Shown here piece after piece: positions 10,227 to 16,454 of a stretch of DNA of 64,000 nt (its first letter is position 1; each line of letters starts with the position of its first letter). Origin of the DNA: Candidatus Latescibacterota bacterium (GTDB taxonomy: Bacteria > Latescibacterota > UBA2968 > GCA-2709665); assembly GCA_963662665.2 (NCBI GenBank), contig CAXXJS010000051.1, positions 1-64,000 of the forward strand. Direction: 5' to 3'. The notes beneath the pieces are model-generated. The model saw only the letters and a program-made list of their open reading frames with translations. It was not told where the DNA came from and searched no databases. A program made the position numbers and the translations under genes.

Positions 10227-11009
10227 GTGCACCGACGAGCAGTGTTAGCAACTATCGTCCTCGCGTTTCTCTTGCTTGCCTCGACGGGTCTGGCGGCAGA
10301 ACAAAGGGACGTGGACGTGGAGGACCTTCGGCGGCGGGCCTTGAAAGGCGAGGCCGAGGCGCAATACCTGCTTGGGATCATGTCCGCCAACGCCATTGGT
10401 GTCAATCAGGACTTCGCGGAGGCGGTCAGATGGTACCGTCTCGCCGCCAGGCAGGGTCACGCGGCGGCGCAGACCGGCCTCGGGTGGATGTACGCCCACG
10501 GTCTGGGCGTCGAAAGGGACCCCGCGGAGGCAATCAAATGGTACCACGCCGCAGCCGCTCAAGGACACGCCGACGCCCGGTTCAACCTGGGAACGGCGTT
10601 CGCCCGTGGCCGCGGCGTGCAGAGGGATCTCACGAAAGCGGTTGAATTTTACCGCTCTGCGGCGGACCAGGAACACGCCGGCGCGCAATACCTCCTCGGT
10701 ACCATCTACGCCAACGCCCGCGGTGTGCCCCGGGACTATGCAGAGGCGTTGAAATGGTTCCGCAGGGCAGTCGACCAGGGCTTTGTACGAGCGCGGTCAC
10801 AACTCGGGATGATGTACGCTCTGGGCCTGGGCGTGGACCGGGACGACGTTTCAGCCCACGCCCATTGCAGTCTGGCCGCCGCTGCCGGTGACAGCCTCGG
10901 CAGCGTTGTGCGGGACAATCTGGAAACGTCGATGACGCCCGCGCAGATCGCCGAAGCCCGGCGACTCGCGCAAGAGTGGAGCAGGAAAGCGAAGTCTACT
11001 CAGGAATAA
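10227..11009 (+). CDS. Secreted Sel1-like repeat protein
   Basis: Signal peptide plus about five AQyxLGxmY..GxGVxxDxxEAxxWYrxAAxQG repeats. Confidence 0.9.
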   Translation: MHRRAVLATIVLAFLLLASTGLAAEQRDVDVEDLRRRALKGEAEAQYLLGIMSANAIGVNQDFAEAVRWYRLAARQGHAAAQTGLGWMYAHGLGVERDPAEAIKWYHAAAAQGHADARFNLGTAFARGRGVQRDLTKAVEFYRSAADQEHAGAQYLLGTIYANARGVPRDYAEALKWFRRAVDQGFVRARSQLGMMYALGLGVDRDDVSAHAHCSLAAAAGDSLGSVVRDNLETSMTPAQIAEARRLAQEWSRKAKSTQE

Positions 11010-11040
11010 TTGGCTTAGCCCAAGTTTCGGTGTAAGAAAC

Positions 11041-11066
11041 GAAAAGGCCCCGGAATTGCGGGGCCT
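11041..11066 (-). terminator. Intrinsic terminator, minus strand
   Basis: AGGCCCC-loop-GGGGCCT hairpin followed by TTTTC on the minus strand. Confidence 0.55.
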
Positions 11067-11072
11067 ATATTT

Positions 11073-11225
11073 GTGCCCGGGTCGAACTGGATTCACGCGG
11101 TCCCCGTGAGTAACGGGACGCTGCCAGGCCGGGAAACGCTGCGGTTTCCACCACCGCCGTAGAAGGCCGCGACTCACCCTCAAAGGGGAGTGATTGTGAC
11201 GGGACCGCCGACGAGCGCCGGGCGC
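11073..11225. ncRNA. Candidate structured RNA, family unassigned
   Basis: Nested complementary segments 11073-11080/11218-11225 and 11097-11104/11201-11208 plus internal hairpins; no credible ORF. Confidence 0.35.
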
Positions 11226-11292
11226 TTTCAGGACATAAACATCTGCCTCGTTACCGTGATGGTTGGATTCGCTATCGGCACCGCAGCGTTGC

Positions 11293-11916
11293 TCATTCAG
11301 CCAACTGTCTCTTGCTCAGATCAATGGAAACGGAAAGTCGAGGATCTCCAATAGGGTCGCCCTGCCTCGGATGTTCGAGAAACGTAATGCTATCATAGAA
11401 GTCATCCAACGCCACAAATACACCGTATTGTTCAGCCCATTCCCTCATCCTTCGATTGCAGCTGTACTTCCACGAAACGACCTCAATACGCCATCCCCGC
11501 TTCTGCATTCGAGACAAATCCGCGTGAAATCCAACGCCATCCAAAAAACCCGCGCCATCGCCGGTCAACATGACGACTGTGCCTGGGTCTCCGTTGTTGT
11601 CGAAACCATCACGCAACATTTCTGTCTGCAATATCTGGTCTACTCCCTGTTCGCGTCCATACAGGGTACCTCGTTCCAGCAGCTTCACCTCCACACCGCT
11701 GTTTTCCAATCGATTCCAGACGCTTCTCAATTCAGGTGGGACCGAACCTGCTGCAACAGCCCGCCTGACAGTTCGCCCCGCGTGCGCCAACTTCAACATA
11801 TTCGGGAAATGTATCCGTACGCGTGATCGGGCTGCTTCGCCTTCCCGGTCAACAGCAACGTCCTGAGCGCCAATAAAGATGTTAGAATTATCCCAATAGA
11901 TGAAAACACCGCCCAT
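11293..11916 (-). CDS. NYN (LabA/DUF88, PIN-fold) domain protein
   Basis: IYWDNSNIF, EQGVD, MLTGDG.GF and GWRIEVVSW motifs. Confidence 0.85.
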   Translation of the reverse strand: MGGVFIYWDNSNIFIGAQDVAVDREGEAARSRVRIHFPNMLKLAHAGRTVRRAVAAGSVPPELRSVWNRLENSGVEVKLLERGTLYGREQGVDQILQTEMLRDGFDNNGDPGTVVMLTGDGAGFLDGVGFHADLSRMQKRGWRIEVVSWKYSCNRRMREWAEQYGVFVALDDFYDSITFLEHPRQGDPIGDPRLSVSIDLSKRQLAE

Positions 11917-12126
11917 CTTTCGTTACCCCCGTATCTTGCCAATCCGTGAATCGAGAGGTCGTTCCATTGTGGCAGGCAATTCGGCCCCTTATTTCTCCCG
12001 TACACGTGCCGTTTGCGTTTGCATCTCGTTTCCCATCCTCTACATCTCCACTCGCAGTGCCACCAATCAAGCTTGTCGATTGTCCTGCATCTGCAGTAAT
12101 CCGTTTTTGGAAATCTCCACAATTTC

Positions 12127-12540
12127 ATGGCGTCTTGTCAAGTAGAAACGTCCTTTCGATCCGTCGGCACGCTCTGCTACCTTGTCGGCCTCAAGGATCC
12201 GGAACATGCTGCCTCAGGCCCCATGGGCGGCGCCATCCTGGAAACGGCGGTCCTGTCAGAAATCGTTCGGAACTTGACCCATCGCGGTATTGATCCGCAG
12301 GTCTATTTCTGGAGAACCACGGCGGGAACGGAAGTCGATTTCCTGGTTCAAACAGGCGCAGGGATCGTTCCCATCGAGGTAAAGTTGTCCGCTGTGCCGC
12401 GCCCGGCAATGGCCTCCGCTATCAGGAAATTCCAGCGCGACAGGAAAGGCGGATCGAAACCGGGTTACATCGTGCATCCGGGCGACGTCCGCTTGCCGCT
12501 GGGACCATCTGTTACCGCCGTCCCTTTTGCCGACCTGTAG
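12127..12540 (+). pseudogene. C-terminal DUF4143 fragment of an AAA+ ATPase
   Basis: GAILETAV...YFWRTTAGTEVDF...PIEVK present but the ATPase domain is missing; a full-length relative lies at 44486-45670. Confidence 0.75.
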
Positions 12541-12711
12541 CATTGAGCCAATGTTCAAATGAATCAGAAAACAACGAGGCCCTCGGAAACGCCGGGGGCC
12601 ATTTTCATTTAAGATTACCGAATTGATTCTATGTGTGCTGTTGTTCCTGACAGTCCACCTTCAGTTCGTAGTCTCGCACCTGCATCCGGGCGAGACTTCC
12701 GCATCGGCCGT

Positions 12712-14226
12712 TCATCGATTCGCCGTATGCGCGATGGTTTCCACGAACTCGGGCGCTTCAACGTCCTCGAAGCGCCTCTCGATGATTGAGACCGCGTCGT
12801 TTTTCTTCCAGGTTTCCCAGTTCTTCCTGATGGCGCCGCGCGCGTTTTCGACGAGTCGGTCCGGTTCCGGGTGAACGATCACAAACCGCCGTCCGTCCTT
12901 GCCGTCGTACCAATCGATCAACTCGCTGTTGACGCCCCCGTCGTCGAAGCCGTACCCACAGACAACCATCGTATTCGCACGTCCAATCGTCGACCGGAAG
13001 CAATAGCGTAGTTCGCGGAATATCCCGGATCCATGTTCCGGGACCGCGTTCGTCGGACCGATCAGCAAAATCCGCGGGCTATGTTCCGCGTACAGAAAGC
13101 TGCCCTCATCGCCAATGCGCAGAGGATAGAGATTGTGAGGGACGCGCCTGATCTGCCCGTCCGTATAGCGGTACCAATCCACGGAGCCGCGCAGCTTCAG
13201 AAACGGAATCGCAACATCCGCGGGGACGTTGCCGGTCCAGAGCGAAACGGCATCCTGTTGTACCGTAAATCCGTCGACGAGCACGATCTCCCGACCTCTC
13301 AGAAACGTCTCGACGTGCGTCTCGTGGCTCAGCGTCGCCAGACTGGCGACATTGAAAGCCTTACAGGCGTGTTCGATGGCGTTCAGATGCCGTACCCGAT
13401 CCTGCGCAGGTTGATGTATCACCAGGCTCTGTGAAACGACGTCCGCAACGTATTTACATGTTTCCCTCATCAGGATTTCCAGGTCGTGGGTCACGGTCGG
13501 CTCGATCAGGCCGGCGCCAACGCCGTTTGCCTCCGTCGCGGTTGCGGCCATCGACGACATCCCGGCTCTCAGGTCATCGACGAACCCGCCGAGCGCCGGG
13601 TTCTCCATCTCGCCGCACGCTTCATCCAACGCCTGACGCGCCAGGAAGTAGATGTCCTCGTAGTCGCCCCGTCTCCCGCCGTGAGCCGACAGGTACGCGT
13701 CCGCCTCGGCGCCCAATCGTTCCGCAATGCCGGCGGGAACCTTCACGGCCTCCACCCTTGGCTCATCTCCGCCACTGATGTAGAAACACCCATCGCCGTG
13801 CCGGGTAACGCCACGGCCCGAAACAACAATGTCGGTCAGTTCTTGCGTGGACGGAAAGCCCGCGGCTACAGACGCGCCCGCACCCAGCAATAATGCGATA
13901 TTGGTATTCCTGTAAACACCATGTCCTTCCCACAACGTGGGTTGCGGCTGATAGCGTTCGACTTCGATGCTGTCTTCCTGCTGGCGGGCCTGCAGGAGAT
14001 CGTAGGACGTCTGTCTCCGCAACCAGTCCTCGGCGTCGGACCAGCCGGCCTTCTCCAATCGAATCGCCATCTCGGGCGAGATGGCCGCGTGCCCGTTGAG
14101 CACCCGCGATAGCGTGTGACGTGCCACGCCCAACACCCTCGCGGCGTCGGTGACGTTGAGGCAGAGCGGGTCGAGCCAGTTCTCTACAATGCTGAGACCG
14201 GGATGATGCGGTTTCTCCACAGCCAT
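12712..14226 (-). CDS. HigA/VapI-type HTH fused to a SIR2-like domain with degenerate motifs
   Basis: N-terminal HPG...VTDAARVLGVARHTLSRVLNGHAAISPEMAIRLEKA; then LLLGAGAS, TLSHE, KLRGS, CGYGFDD. Confidence 0.8.
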   Translation of the reverse strand: MAVEKPHHPGLSIVENWLDPLCLNVTDAARVLGVARHTLSRVLNGHAAISPEMAIRLEKAGWSDAEDWLRRQTSYDLLQARQQEDSIEVERYQPQPTLWEGHGVYRNTNIALLLGAGASVAAGFPSTQELTDIVVSGRGVTRHGDGCFYISGGDEPRVEAVKVPAGIAERLGAEADAYLSAHGGRRGDYEDIYFLARQALDEACGEMENPALGGFVDDLRAGMSSMAATATEANGVGAGLIEPTVTHDLEILMRETCKYVADVVSQSLVIHQPAQDRVRHLNAIEHACKAFNVASLATLSHETHVETFLRGREIVLVDGFTVQQDAVSLWTGNVPADVAIPFLKLRGSVDWYRYTDGQIRRVPHNLYPLRIGDEGSFLYAEHSPRILLIGPTNAVPEHGSGIFRELRYCFRSTIGRANTMVVCGYGFDDGGVNSELIDWYDGKDGRRFVIVHPEPDRLVENARGAIRKNWETWKKNDAVSIIERRFEDVEAPEFVETIAHTANR

Positions 14227-14800
14227 GACATTTGTCCCTCGGCGGTTGTGGTTATACAGCTCGACGCCGTACGCTGCGCCCTCCGCGTAATATCGTTGTT
14301 AATTCGGCAGTCGACTGATTCACAAAAAGTTACAATCCCGATAGATCGTGTAAGGGGGAGTGACTTCGAAGATATTTATCCGAGGGAGGGCGTTCTGCAG
14401 GACATCTCCGGGCGGGGACTCTCCTGAATTTACGTGTCTATACCCAACGTAAAAGGCCGCGTTGATGGAGAATGTTGCGTTTTTATAAATGTATCGCGTA
14501 CCGGTACGCGCGTCAAGTGGATTCGTGCCCGCCCGGACCACGGGCGCGCATTGTATATTCGATATAAGAGGCGGGTCGAGAATATCAAAGGCTGACGCTG
14601 ACGGAATTTCGGAGATTGACAGTTCGCGGTTCAGATTTGGGGCAGGCATTCGTGCAATTTACAGCACCGACACGCCATCGGTCCGCGCCGCCTTTTCGTC
14701 GAAGCTGTATAGCGGATTGGCTCCGGTGCGTTACGATACGTTCGTTTCTTAAGGAGGCCCTTTCGAATCGTTCGTCCTGGAATCGATGCACTCCAGTCCG

Positions 14801-14845
14801 AAAAAGCGAGACCCCGACGGGAACTTCCATCGGGGTCCTTTTGTG
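14801..14845. terminator. Bidirectional intrinsic terminator downstream of coaE
   Basis: AAAAAGCGAGACCCCGA-loop-TCGGGGTCCTTTT. Confidence 0.6.
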
Positions 14846-14916
14846 TTCTGCGCGGAGGCGGGTGGCGCATCCGGTCTGATGACTATCGGTCTCGTGACTT
14901 TCCGGAAGTCACTCTC

Positions 14917-15513
14917 TTACAATTCCAAAATCCGTCGCCAGACCGCCAGCGCCCGTGTCTCCAGGTTCGCCACCGATCCCGCGTTTTCTATGACGTAGTC
15001 CGCGGCCTTAACCTTCTCCGATTCTGACATCTGTGACGCCATCCGGTCCCGGACCTCGGCTTCGGACAGCCCCTTCCGTTCCATGGCCCGCCGAATCCGG
15101 ACCCCCTCCGGCGCCGTGACAACCACCAGAACGTTGCACAGTTCGCGATGGTCGCCCCACTCCAGGAACAGCGCGGCGTCGATCACAACGGACCTGCCCG
15201 GACACTCGTCGAGAGCGCGACGGGAATCCTCCCGCAACATACGTCCAAGAGGCGGCCATACAATGGCATTCAGCCGGTCCCGCGCCTCAGCCGAAGCGAA
15301 CGCGCGCCGCCCCAGTTCCCGGCGGACAAGGACCCCATTTTCATCAAGAATATCCCCGCCGAAACTATCGGCCAGCGCCCGCAGAACCGCCGGGTCTTCC
15401 ACCGCATCGCGCCCCACCTCGTCCGCCTCGATCACGTACGCGCCCTCCCGGGCGAAAACGTCGCACACCCGGCTCTTGCCCGCACCAATGCCTCCAGTAA
15501 CCCCGACAATCAC
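14917..15513 (-). CDS. coaE: Dephospho-CoA kinase
   Basis: VGVTGGIGAGKS P-loop, RLNAIVWP, DAALFLE, ADYVIEN. Confidence 0.93.
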   Translation of the reverse strand: MIVGVTGGIGAGKSRVCDVFAREGAYVIEADEVGRDAVEDPAVLRALADSFGGDILDENGVLVRRELGRRAFASAEARDRLNAIVWPPLGRMLREDSRRALDECPGRSVVIDAALFLEWGDHRELCNVLVVVTAPEGVRIRRAMERKGLSEAEVRDRMASQMSESEKVKAADYVIENAGSVANLETRALAVWRRILEL

Positions 15514-16454
15514 GACCGGTCCCCGGGTCGACGTACCCGCAATCGCAGGCGCAGCGGCAGCGCGTCTTCGGGAGACTCCTCATCCCAGCGTTCGATCACC
15601 CGCCTGTTGCGGACCCGCACCGCAACGAACACGCCGATGAGCAGCAACGTCATGTAAAGCCAGAAAGCCTCCGCAGAGGTCAGCAAGGCCGTTGTACTGA
15701 ACCTTCCCTTTGCGTATTGGGCCCACTCCCGTTCGAACTTCCGCGGCGTGAACCCGGTAAGCCGATACAGAGCGACGTCGAACGAAACCCCGGTCTTGAG
15801 GGAGTGCACGATCTGAGCCACGGCGTTGGGACCGCCCAGGTGGATCAGGTACAGGACGGCAAGCAGGCTTTCGGTATACGCCAGCCTCGCCTTTGAAGAC
15901 GAAAAACCGAGGACCCCCTCGATTTCCGCCAGCGGAACCAGCCCGCCCGAAAAGATCGCGTAGGAGACCTCGGTGCTTTCCCGCAGTCGCCATTCCTGCG
16001 CGGCCCACATAGCCACGCCTTCGTCGAACCAGCGCGGAACCCGCGCCTGCGTCAGTTGATACAGCAGAATATGAGAGATTTCGTGCCGGGCCGTTTTCAG
16101 GACCTGCCCGCGTTGCCCCGGCAGCAGGCGCAACACGGCGATCCGTTCTTCGGGGAAGGCGCAACCTGCCCCCCAGTGGGGCACGCGCCCCCGCGTAACA
16201 GCCTGAAAGAGCGACTGCGAACCGGCCACGTAGATGATAATTGGGACATCCCCACCACCGCCCAGCTTTTCCGCGACATCGGACCTACCGATGATCAATT
16301 CATCCAGCAGGCCCCGCGCAAACGTGCGATCGACGTCCTGAAACCGCACCGACAGTCCCTCCCGTTCGAGCCGCTCCCAGCCCGCCGCGGCCGGAACCGG
16401 CCGGAAGACCAGGCAGACCACCCAGATCAACGGGCAGAACCGCCGGGCGATCAT
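15510..16454 (-). CDS. Membrane-anchored peptidase MA-like metallopeptidase
   Basis: Signal peptide, HEISH (HEXXH), PRWFDEGVA, C-terminal TM helix. Confidence 0.78.
   Translation of the reverse strand: MIARRFCPLIWVVCLVFRPVPAAAGWERLEREGLSVRFQDVDRTFARGLLDELIIGRSDVAEKLGGGGDVPIIIYVAGSQSLFQAVTRGRVPHWGAGCAFPEERIAVLRLLPGQRGQVLKTARHEISHILLYQLTQARVPRWFDEGVAMWAAQEWRLRESTEVSYAIFSGGLVPLAEIEGVLGFSSSKARLAYTESLLAVLYLIHLGGPNAVAQIVHSLKTGVSFDVALYRLTGFTPRKFEREWAQYAKGRFSTTALLTSAEAFWLYMTLLLIGVFVAVRVRNRRVIERWDEESPEDALPLRLRLRVRRPGDRS

Follow-up and report, generated by a model that had tools for sequence, protein, structure and literature searches.

A HigA antitoxin joined to a SIR2 domain with a degenerate catalytic centre in a Latescibacterota genome

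Defence proteins of the SIR2 type are suicide effectors that burn NAD+ and need a separate sensor or partner. In DSR2, a His-to-Ala change abolishes toxicity. The PD-lambda-2 system of E. coli combines a HigB-like toxin, a HigA-like helix-turn-helix (HTH) protein with a C-terminal peptidase, and a third component (PMC9519451). We analysed a 64,000-nt stretch of a Candidatus Latescibacterota genome (contig CAXXJS010000051.1, positions 1 to 64,000; the whole stretch is called the window), in which one open reading frame (ORF) joins a complete HigA antitoxin to a SIR2-like domain with a degenerate catalytic centre. In this fusion the partner of SIR2 is a covalently attached antitoxin or repressor. 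No description of a fusion of HigA, or of another HTH, to SIR2 was found in the literature searched, as far as its available portions go, supplementary tables of defence-system surveys lying outside that scope.

The fusion protein, its active site and its constraint

The N-terminal part of the protein matched the NCBIfam model TIGR02607, 'HigA family antitoxin', scoring 79.6 bits where 47.7 are required (E = 1.1e-22). The match covered residues 5-83 and profile positions 3-81 of 81, i.e. the whole model. Solved HigA antitoxin structures matched the same end (E ~1e-10), and Pfam HTH_3 scored 24.1 bits, barely above its cut-off of 23. For the remainder, 19 PADLOC SIR2 models matched residues 105-498, the best at 3e-9. 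Pfam SIR2_2 (PF13289), whose gathering score is reached by relatives of the window protein, gave no match to the protein itself at E <= 0.1, and NCBIfam NF042942, 'SIR2 family anti-phage-associated protein', did not reach its cut-off of 500 (23.6 bits over 22 residues). An AlphaFold2 model built from 29 aligned sequences had a mean predicted local distance difference test (pLDDT) score of 75.7, with the SIR2 blocks mostly at 80-91, the HigA part at 54-70 and residues 90-104 below 50. Foldseek ranked the SIR2 subunits of SIR2-HerA complexes first (probability 1.00, E 4e-9 to 4e-7, target-normalised TM-score 0.5-0.6), followed by SPARSA, archaeal Sir2, human FAM118B and KomBC. A PDB sequence search with the family profile returned the same SIR2-HerA SIR2 entries at 1.5e-6. 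The window protein thus belongs to the HigA family by its sequence and, by its fold, to the SIR2_2 superfamily, of which it is a diverged member. The two parts meet at residues 98-108, where stand-alone HigA proteins stop and stand-alone SIR2 relatives begin, and the SIR2 Rossmann fold carries its G-A-G-x-S loop as GAGAS at residues 115-119. These results agree with the initial annotation, made from the sequence alone, which had predicted both domains in one 504-aa ORF, built from one toxin-antitoxin part and one part of anti-phage type, and had proposed the structural comparison. It had placed the 5' end at 14290, which takes in an in-frame upstream piece (...YAEGAAYGVELYNHNRRGTNV) running into the ATG of the fusion; the ORF itself is shorter (Table 1).

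To compare the active site with its family, the 235 retrieved proteins that reached 330 aa were aligned and 21 shorter ones dropped. Removal of 12 fused proteins, four partial sequences from the fused clade (P0003, P0014-P0016) and three HTH-only proteins left 216 non-fused proteins, among which 43 columns were conserved at >=90%. The family frame reads G-A-G-x-S, T-L-(N/C)-H-D, K-L-H-G-S-x-(N/D)-W, L-L-I-G-T-F-N-K-x-x-x-Y and G-Y-(G/S)-F-G-D-K-G-I-N. Profile alignment to PsSIR2 (8w9l) set T-L-C-H-D over T-T-N-Y-D, and K-L-H-G-S over K-L-H-G-S. At the position of codon 346, His was present in 216/216 non-fused proteins and Arg in 7 of the 12 fused ones. The Asn place held Asn in 115/235 sequences and Cys in 98/235. 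The Cys sub-clade (98/235, T-L-C-H-D) keeps the His and every other conserved residue, and a residue other than Asn at this place is therefore old and widespread. The T, N, K and Y of the loop were 96-100% conserved in the non-fused relatives, and profile alignment identified an equivalent stretch, 'GANKYSH', in the SIR2 of E. coli SIR2-HerA. Among the 12 fused proteins, between 3 and 8 carry a substitution at each of the positions Asp302, Thr391, Asn393, Lys394 and Tyr398.

Across the 43 columns, non-fused proteins deviated at a median of 1 (mean 1.1, n = 216, two outliers with 7) and fused proteins at 1-7. The window protein deviates at six (D302E, H346R, P385R, T391P, K394A and Y398H), and P0005, of the L003 type, by the clade-wide P385R only. 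Outside these columns, the window protein carries Ser300 for Cys/Asn and Asp428 for Gly. It retains G115, G117, S119, G319, F320, W330, K344, G347, S348 and W351, as well as G390, G424, Y425, F427, D429, N433 and W439. The catalytic Asn and His of defence SIR2 NADases are thus both missing (Ser300, Arg346). The four motif strings first reported, GAGAS, TLSHE, KLRGS and GYGFDD, are present exactly as written. The accompanying claim that all the family motifs were altered is overstated: His to Arg, Asp to Glu and the eroded G-T-x-N-K...Y loop, which the claim overlooked, are recent losses, whereas the Cys/Asn variation at the Asn place is old and family-wide. Likewise, the description as a pseudo-enzyme fits the window protein, in which the NADase residues are gone and the frame is open and constrained, but not the fusion as such, because the full catalytic set survives in other proteins of the fused clade.

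Table 1. Features of the fusion locus in the window
Feature	Position	Strand	Basis
HigA-SIR2 fusion coding sequence	12712..14226	(-)	ORF list; 504 aa + stop
HigA antitoxin / Xre-type HTH domain, aa 1-97	13936..14226	(-)	TIGR02607, HTH_3, solved HigA structures
Linker, aa 98-108 (LWEGHGVYRNT), fusion joint	13903..13935	(-)	pLDDT and ends of stand-alone homologues
SIR2_2-type domain, aa 109-504, degenerate catalytic centre	12715..13902	(-)	PADLOC, PDB profile, Foldseek
GAGAS, intact dinucleotide loop	13870-13884	(-)	Letter-by-letter check
TLSHE (counterpart of TTNYD): Ser300 at Asn place, Glu302 for invariant Asp	13321..13335	(-)	Profile alignment, column counts
KLRGS	13183-13197	(-)	Letter-by-letter check
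Codon 346, CGC = Arg, replacing catalytic His of KLHGS	13189..13191	(-)	Column counts, codons
GPTNAVPEH, eroded G-T-x-N-K-x-x-x-Y loop (T391P, K394A, Y398H)	13033..13059	(-)	Column conservation
GYGFDD	12940-12957	(-)	Letter-by-letter check
Untranslated leader, decayed higB (stops, frameshifts)	14227..14487	(-)	Transitive homology via L095
Fusion promoter: -35 TTGACG (14511-14516), 17-nt spacer, -10 TACATT (14488-14493)	14488..14516	(-)	Promoter scan
Perfect 14-bp palindrome GCGTACCGGTACGC, putative HigA operator in promoter spacer	14496..14509	.	Read from sequence
AAA_14-DUF4143 ATPase, C-terminal fragment, convergent neighbour	12127..12540	(+)	Pfam DUF4143 1.1e-18, profile positions 82-160 of 160; PADLOC PDC-S01 2.8e-21
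NYN-domain gene, syntenic neighbour	11293..11916	(-)	Pfam NYN 2.1e-7
vapC / PIN toxin 3' remnant, 23 codons + stop (RTGANPLYSFDEKAARTDGVSVL*)	14659..14730	(-)	Match to intact PIN C-terminus in L001, L006

The history of the His position was followed on a tree built by maximum likelihood from 14 distinct fused SIR2 domains and seven stand-alone outgroups, with the His/Arg column masked. Eight of the 14 carried Arg and six His. The tree required four His/Arg changes (bootstrap 5-95%: 4-4), and its well-supported branches force at least three. By an approximately unbiased (AU) test, a single Arg clade was rejected (delta lnL 145, p = 0.0005); a clade of L005, L006 and P0012, a grouping chosen after seeing the tree, was weakly rejected (p = 0.035). 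All His codons were CAT, and the Arg codons were CGC (window and L095), CGA (L087) or CGT (L005 and L006). In L005 and L006, CAT had become CGT in each case with no distinctive flanking variants in common, and on this informal comparison a recombination tract behind the repeated Arg is disfavoured. Repeated Arg is suggestive but not proof of selection for Arg, because only two non-synonymous transitions are open to a CAT codon and the change to CGT is one of them. The loop has been worn differently in each lineage (GPTNAVPEH, GTYKTFSDC, GAIHDVLEY and others).

The distribution of the fusion was examined in a search of 5.8 billion proteins, covering lengths of 277-882 aa, so that larger fusions fall outside it. 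Besides the window protein, 11 more full-length proteins were found (500-504 aa, 64-83% identity, whole query covered), together with about 90 proteins of ~330-480 aa that matched the SIR2 part alone at 37-53% identity. A survey of 40 related genomes and the window's own, 15 belonging to the fusion genus and 26 to other genera, restricted the full-length fusion to that one genus, where it was intact in 10/15 genomes. In G002 it is split in two pieces and in G013 it is internally deleted, leaving residues 1-103 and 425-502; G001, G007 and G009 gave only distant HigA-type matches and no fusion. In the 26 genomes of other genera, matches were confined to HigA, at up to 80% identity over residues 1-99. 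With the same 500-504-aa frame open in 10 genomes, at 64-83% identity and with a ratio of non-synonymous to synonymous divergence (dN/dS) well below 1, the fusion is not a chance event. The initial annotation had considered a chance fusion, with separate higA and SIR2 genes in relatives and substitutions unique to this genome; in the genus, instead, 10 fused orthologs are intact and Arg recurs among them.

Selection on the two parts was estimated by the Nei-Gojobori method for the 45 pairs of 10 orthologs. The HigA part gave dN/dS values of 0.03-0.23 and the SIR2 part values of 0.15-0.32. Between the window gene and L087 it was 0.25 (bootstrap 95% 0.18-0.34) at a dS of 0.42, with no indel in 504 codons, and this divergence wholly post-dates the loss, since both lack the His, Cys300 and Asp302. 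Pairs that bear the His gave 0.17-0.25 and pairs without it 0.22-0.30; a catalytically intact stand-alone pair, L012/L048, gave 0.27 (n = 1). Fused orthologs hold all, some or none of the catalytic residues under similar constraint. The whole SIR2 domain is constrained as before; its catalytic residues are not.

Promoter, leader and chromosomal setting

An intact higBA operon in a sister genus (locus L097) encodes HigB (92 aa) followed by HigA (100 aa), the latter sharing 80% identity with residues 2-97 of the window protein. Upstream of this higB lie TTGACA, 17 nt containing GCGTACCGGTATACG, and TACATT, and the promoter shares its operator core with the fused loci. In this stretch of L097 (2085-2130 (-)) the GTG start of higB lies only 5 nt past the -10 box, and its mRNA would therefore be leaderless or nearly so. 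The promoter and operator block was kept in 11/11 aligned fused loci (10 intact and one split). It was retained in L087 even though ~130 nt of the leader are missing there, and in L095 even though the leader is ~45% different.

The 14-bp palindrome occurs as one perfect copy in the 4.86-Mb assembly, which is 92% complete, so that a site could be missed. Copies with one mismatch numbered three, against three for a reversed control. The 10-bp core occurs seven times, the other six copies lying inside open frames of 420-1028 aa. As the only non-coding occurrence is at its own promoter, the fusion is expected to be an autoregulator and not the head of a regulon; no sign of a regulon was found that would support the earlier proposal of a transcription regulator.

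From the -10 box to the ATG, the leader measures 255-266 nt across loci and 133 nt in L087, with stops in every frame. Aligned as DNA, the leaders of the window and L095 gave z = 15.9, and the L095 leader against L097 higB gave z = 10.3, with 0/300 shuffles as high in either case; the L095 leader reads 15/24 residues of the HigB N-terminus. Direct comparison of the window leader with higB was negative: PF05015 gave no match even at E <= 10, tblastn with L097 HigB gave E = 2.9, a harsh global DNA alignment gave z of about -1, and a local one z = 1.4 with 31/300 shuffles as high. The window leader is taken as a dead higB because both steps, window to L095 and L095 to L097 higB, are significant, and this transitive route is the only one. 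The piece EGAAYGVELYNH is the tail of the dead higB leader, where L097 HigB ends in EGNTYDVNLIDYH. It had been noticed from the start as resembling the end of a deleted higB; a higB relic it is, although the gene was not deleted and persists as a full-length decayed copy of ~260 nt. No intact higB lies directly upstream of the fusion in the window, where the 261 nt hold stops and frameshifts, and the toxin gene is dead in 11/11 fused loci examined. The two other HigB-like genes of the genome each have their own HigA, 28-34% identical to the HigA of the fusion. The best explanation is that the fusion arose inside a former higBA operon and is still on the higBA promoter.

A structured-RNA leader was considered and rejected in favour of the higB relic. 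An Rfam scan of 11000-15600 gave just three chance-level matches, RNAalifold on eight leaders gave a covariation term of +2.77 with compensatory changes in 2/41 pairs, and L087 does without ~130 nt of the leader. Among most loci, Jukes-Cantor divergence of the leader was 0.24-0.45, about the synonymous rate of the HigA part (0.2-0.6); synonymous divergence of the SIR2 part in the same distant pairs was ~1.0, well above both. The lower divergence of leader and HigA part could come from recombination, constraint at the mRNA level or a difference in mutation rate. Two further proteins carry close copies of the HigA domain, joined in P0179 (182 aa) to a HigB-like toxin piece and in P0105 (701 aa) to an Era-like GTPase with KH domains; both may be gene-calling artefacts over broken loci.

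In each genome the fused gene occupies the same site, flanked by coaE and a Sel1 gene. Its surroundings run Band_7, Peptidase_MA_2, CoaE, a variable stretch with Fic and VapBC, the fusion, AAA_14-DUF4143 in convergent orientation, NYN at some loci, and Sel1-repeat. The fusion gene is best explained as vertically inherited and genus-restricted. The window has the most reduced island, with no Fic, a vapC stump of 23 codons and a DUF4143 match confined to the final 79 profile positions. Where the window has the stump, L001 and L006 have an intact PIN gene with an upstream partner and a Fic gene. The AAA_14-DUF4143 gene is the convergent neighbour at every fused locus that has this flank; it is full length (419-476 aa) in L001, L002, L006 and L008 and truncated in the window and L003. 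A NYN neighbour is present in L001 and L003, and no NYN match was obtained in L002, L004, L006 and L008. The NYN gene and the DUF4143 relic, noted at the outset as lying beside the fusion, are thus syntenic neighbours in a variable island, but a partnership with the fusion finds no support. Between the DUF4143 fragment and the 3' end of the fusion, a terminator-like hairpin (12578-12600 (+), nine pairs, eight of them G-C, then a T-rich tail) may terminate both genes. A Pfam scan of neighbours detected no HerA gene beside the window gene and six fused loci, and no NAD-metabolism gene adjoins the fusion locus.

The SIR2 part was traced to its stand-alone relatives. When 1.84 billion cluster representatives were searched exhaustively with HMMER, 201 matched at E <= 1e-30. 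Among the best 150 of these there was one fused full-length representative (P0013), two short proteins with the N-terminal part only (P0111 and P0179), and otherwise stand-alone proteins of ~380-420 aa. In species-representative genomes, a relative was encoded in 233/558 candidate stretches; the 80 retained comprised seven fused and 73 stand-alone proteins from many phyla, nearly all from metagenome-assembled genomes. A neighbour scan took in 125 ORFs at 42 of the 73 stand-alone loci, hand-picked mostly for full flanks, and within these no recurring neighbour family was found, nor any HerA, TIR or Argonaute. The neighbours included integrases, transposases, a relaxase, a reverse transcriptase, HicAB, HigB_toxin, PIN-like, Fic and GmrSD genes, a methylase with HATPase_c_3, one AAA_14-DUF4143, RhuM, and housekeeping or metabolic genes. 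At the AAA_14-DUF4143 locus (L058, 4799-5998) that gene and the start of the SIR2 gene share 4 nt, but a single case among 42 loci is too few for a link. A stand-alone member gave one weak match among plasmids (31% identity over 43% of the query) and none among phages. Drawn from solo proteins with no recurring neighbour and with mobile or toxin-antitoxin genes around them, the donor was a single-gene, island-hopping SIR2.

Other HTH-SIR2 fusions were not found among eight longer relatives (431-640 aa), which have SIR2_2 alone, and the ESM Atlas gave SIR2_2 clusters only (scores 0.79, leads only). A second, distant SIR2_2 gene of the organism (G000, contig C30, ~130688-131953 (-), frame of 422 aa) was missed by the window-protein query at E <= 0.001. 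It reads GAGVS, TTNYD, KLHGS and GYSFCD, and because of this full motif set the organism is not generally intolerant of canonical SIR2 sites.

What the fused SIR2 domain may do

With the His, the Asn-place residue, the Asp and three loop residues lost, the window SIR2 is likely no longer NAD+-destroying, while it keeps the GAGAS loop, the fold and its exact length. We favour, at a probability of roughly 0.45, an autorepressed and catalytically dead SIR2 that has been retained for a non-catalytic role. In the ancestral fusion, an NAD+-consuming effector would have been put under antitoxin-type control, SIR2 replacing HigB. The HigA half, as a dimer, would bind the 14-bp palindrome and repress its own gene. 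Decay of higB would have left the ~260-nt leader, and the SIR2 effector would then have been disarmed repeatedly. Our best guesses are that the dead SIR2 is kept for nucleotide binding that would tune repression, for oligomerisation on the DNA-bound repressor, or for both. DNA binding, autorepression and any ligand binding by the window protein are predictions from its sequence. The more specific proposal, that a captured SIR2 was disarmed at least three times by His-to-Arg change, its NAD-binding shell being kept as the part through which a one-component repressor senses ligands or oligomerises, appears rather doubtful.

Several points weigh against a dead but retained SIR2. Loss of NADase activity is the most likely consequence of the substitutions, judged from the residues alone, and the HigA part of the structural model is of low confidence (pLDDT 54-70). 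The fusion is dispensable within the genus, being split, gutted or not found in five genomes (G002; G013; G001, G007 and G009). As dN/dS is alike in His-less, His-bearing and the one stand-alone pair, there is no sign of a change of selective regime at the loss of His; this would fit continuation of the same, possibly still enzymatic, function. The appearance of Arg at each loss is suggestive of a role for Arg. Finally, a repressor acting on itself only needs some output, and none can be named.

The protein could alternatively be the relic of a once-working, His-bearing defence or toxin-antitoxin fusion, now functionless and yet to acquire a stop codon. The window island is decaying, with its higB relic, 23-codon vapC stump, truncated DUF4143 gene and missing Fic; the fusion is split in one genome, internally deleted in another and not found in 3/15; and the catalytic residues were lost piecemeal. 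However, a dN/dS of 0.25 (0.18-0.34) was maintained over a dS of 0.42, all of it after the His loss common to the window gene and L087. No frameshift, stop or indel has entered 504 codons, whereas many have accumulated in the neighbouring higB relic, which is equally old, and promoter and operator are retained even where the leader is deleted. On this evidence we regard a functionless relic as unlikely, if still a serious contender.

Continued activity would make the protein a single-chain toxin-antitoxin or abortive-infection module, degrading or transferring NAD+/ADP-ribose through non-canonical residues that include Arg346; the HigA half would keep expression down until phage shut-off, proteolysis of the linker or some other trigger released the protein. 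Purifying selection equal to that on catalytically intact relatives would fit such a module, as would the strictly conserved frame length, the retention of GAGAS, K344, G347, S348, D429 and N433, and the replacement of His by the same residue, Arg, at least three times. There are precedents in RES-Xre, where an HTH antitoxin accompanies an NAD+-degrading toxin (PMC9503650), and in PD-lambda-2, where a HigA-like HTH is fused to an effector-type domain (PMC9519451). Yet the His is invariant in 216/216 relatives, five further invariant polar residues are gone from the window protein, the Asp beside the Asn place is altered too, and the lineage-specific erosion of the loop looks like a site in decay and not like convergence towards a new site. 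We therefore consider a still active effector to be improbable. A regulon-controlling transcription factor that senses NAD+/ADP-ribose through a dead SIR2 would suit an enzyme-like domain without catalytic residues joined to an HTH, the preserved dinucleotide-binding loop and the precedent of NrtR, in which a Nudix-like effector domain on a DNA-binding domain regulates NAD synthesis (PMC2330246), but it is very hard to reconcile with a palindrome unique in the 92% complete assembly, one-mismatch copies no more frequent than the reversed control (3 vs 3), six other core copies that all lie inside frames of 420-1028 aa, and the lack of an NAD-metabolism gene beside the locus.

Orthologs that carry all, some or no catalytic residues under similar constraint offer a natural comparison within one genus. 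Such a series could reveal what use is made of a SIR2 fold after NAD+ cutting stops, and how toxic defence genes are tamed within a chromosome. If the SIR2 part is indeed a disarmed sensor, it would be the first sensor domain derived from SIR2, and the genus would hold a series from live (L003 type) to dead (window type) enzyme. Should the protein prove inert, the locus would still illustrate cleanly how a toxin is replaced and decays inside a toxin-antitoxin operon.

Relation to described systems

The window protein is not a SIR2-HerA, Thoeris or DSR component, and it lacks the catalytic residues by which defence NADases are recognised. It has its fold and motif frame in common with solo SIR2_2 proteins (~390 aa) and with the SIR2 of SIR2-HerA (Nezha; 8wld, 8uae, 8j4u, 8w9l), and its SIR2 part is 37-53% identical to the stand-alone family. 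It differs in that this SIR2 is fused to HigA and has no HerA or other fixed partner, and in that the His, the Asn-place residue, the Asp and the N-K loop are replaced. With DSR2 and ThsA it shares the SIR2 Rossmann core and the chemistry expected of the ancestral His-bearing form. The SLOG domain and the DSR2-type C-terminal region are absent, and the catalytic His needed for the toxicity of DSR2 is missing. For the Thoeris traits of ThsA, Pfam detected neither a SLOG domain in the protein nor a TIR domain in the scanned neighbours.

Closer in logic are systems that pair a regulator with an enzyme. Xre-RES (PMC9503650), MbcTA and NatR-NatT resemble the fusion in having an Xre/HigA-type HTH repressor with an NAD+-consuming domain. 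They consist of two proteins with a RES (ART-like) toxin, whereas the window has one chain, a SIR2 domain and a degenerate site. PD-lambda-2 is alike in that a HigA-like HTH bears a C-terminal enzyme domain in a defence or toxin-antitoxin locus (PMC9519451), but there the domain is a peptidase, not SIR2, and the HigB-like gene is intact. In NrtR, too, the fold of an NAD-metabolite enzyme serves as effector domain joined to a DNA-binding domain (PMC2330246). The folds are Nudix and winged HTH there, against Xre-HTH and SIR2 here, and NrtR has a regulon of NAD genes, whereas the window operator was found only at its own promoter.

The nearest kin of the locus are HigBA modules. The N-terminal 97 residues of the window protein correspond to a full HigA, the promoter, with its putative palindromic operator, corresponds to that of higBA in L097, and the order of toxin then antitoxin survives as a relic in the window. 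The difference is that in the window HigB is dead and HigA carries a 400-aa C-terminal SIR2 domain.

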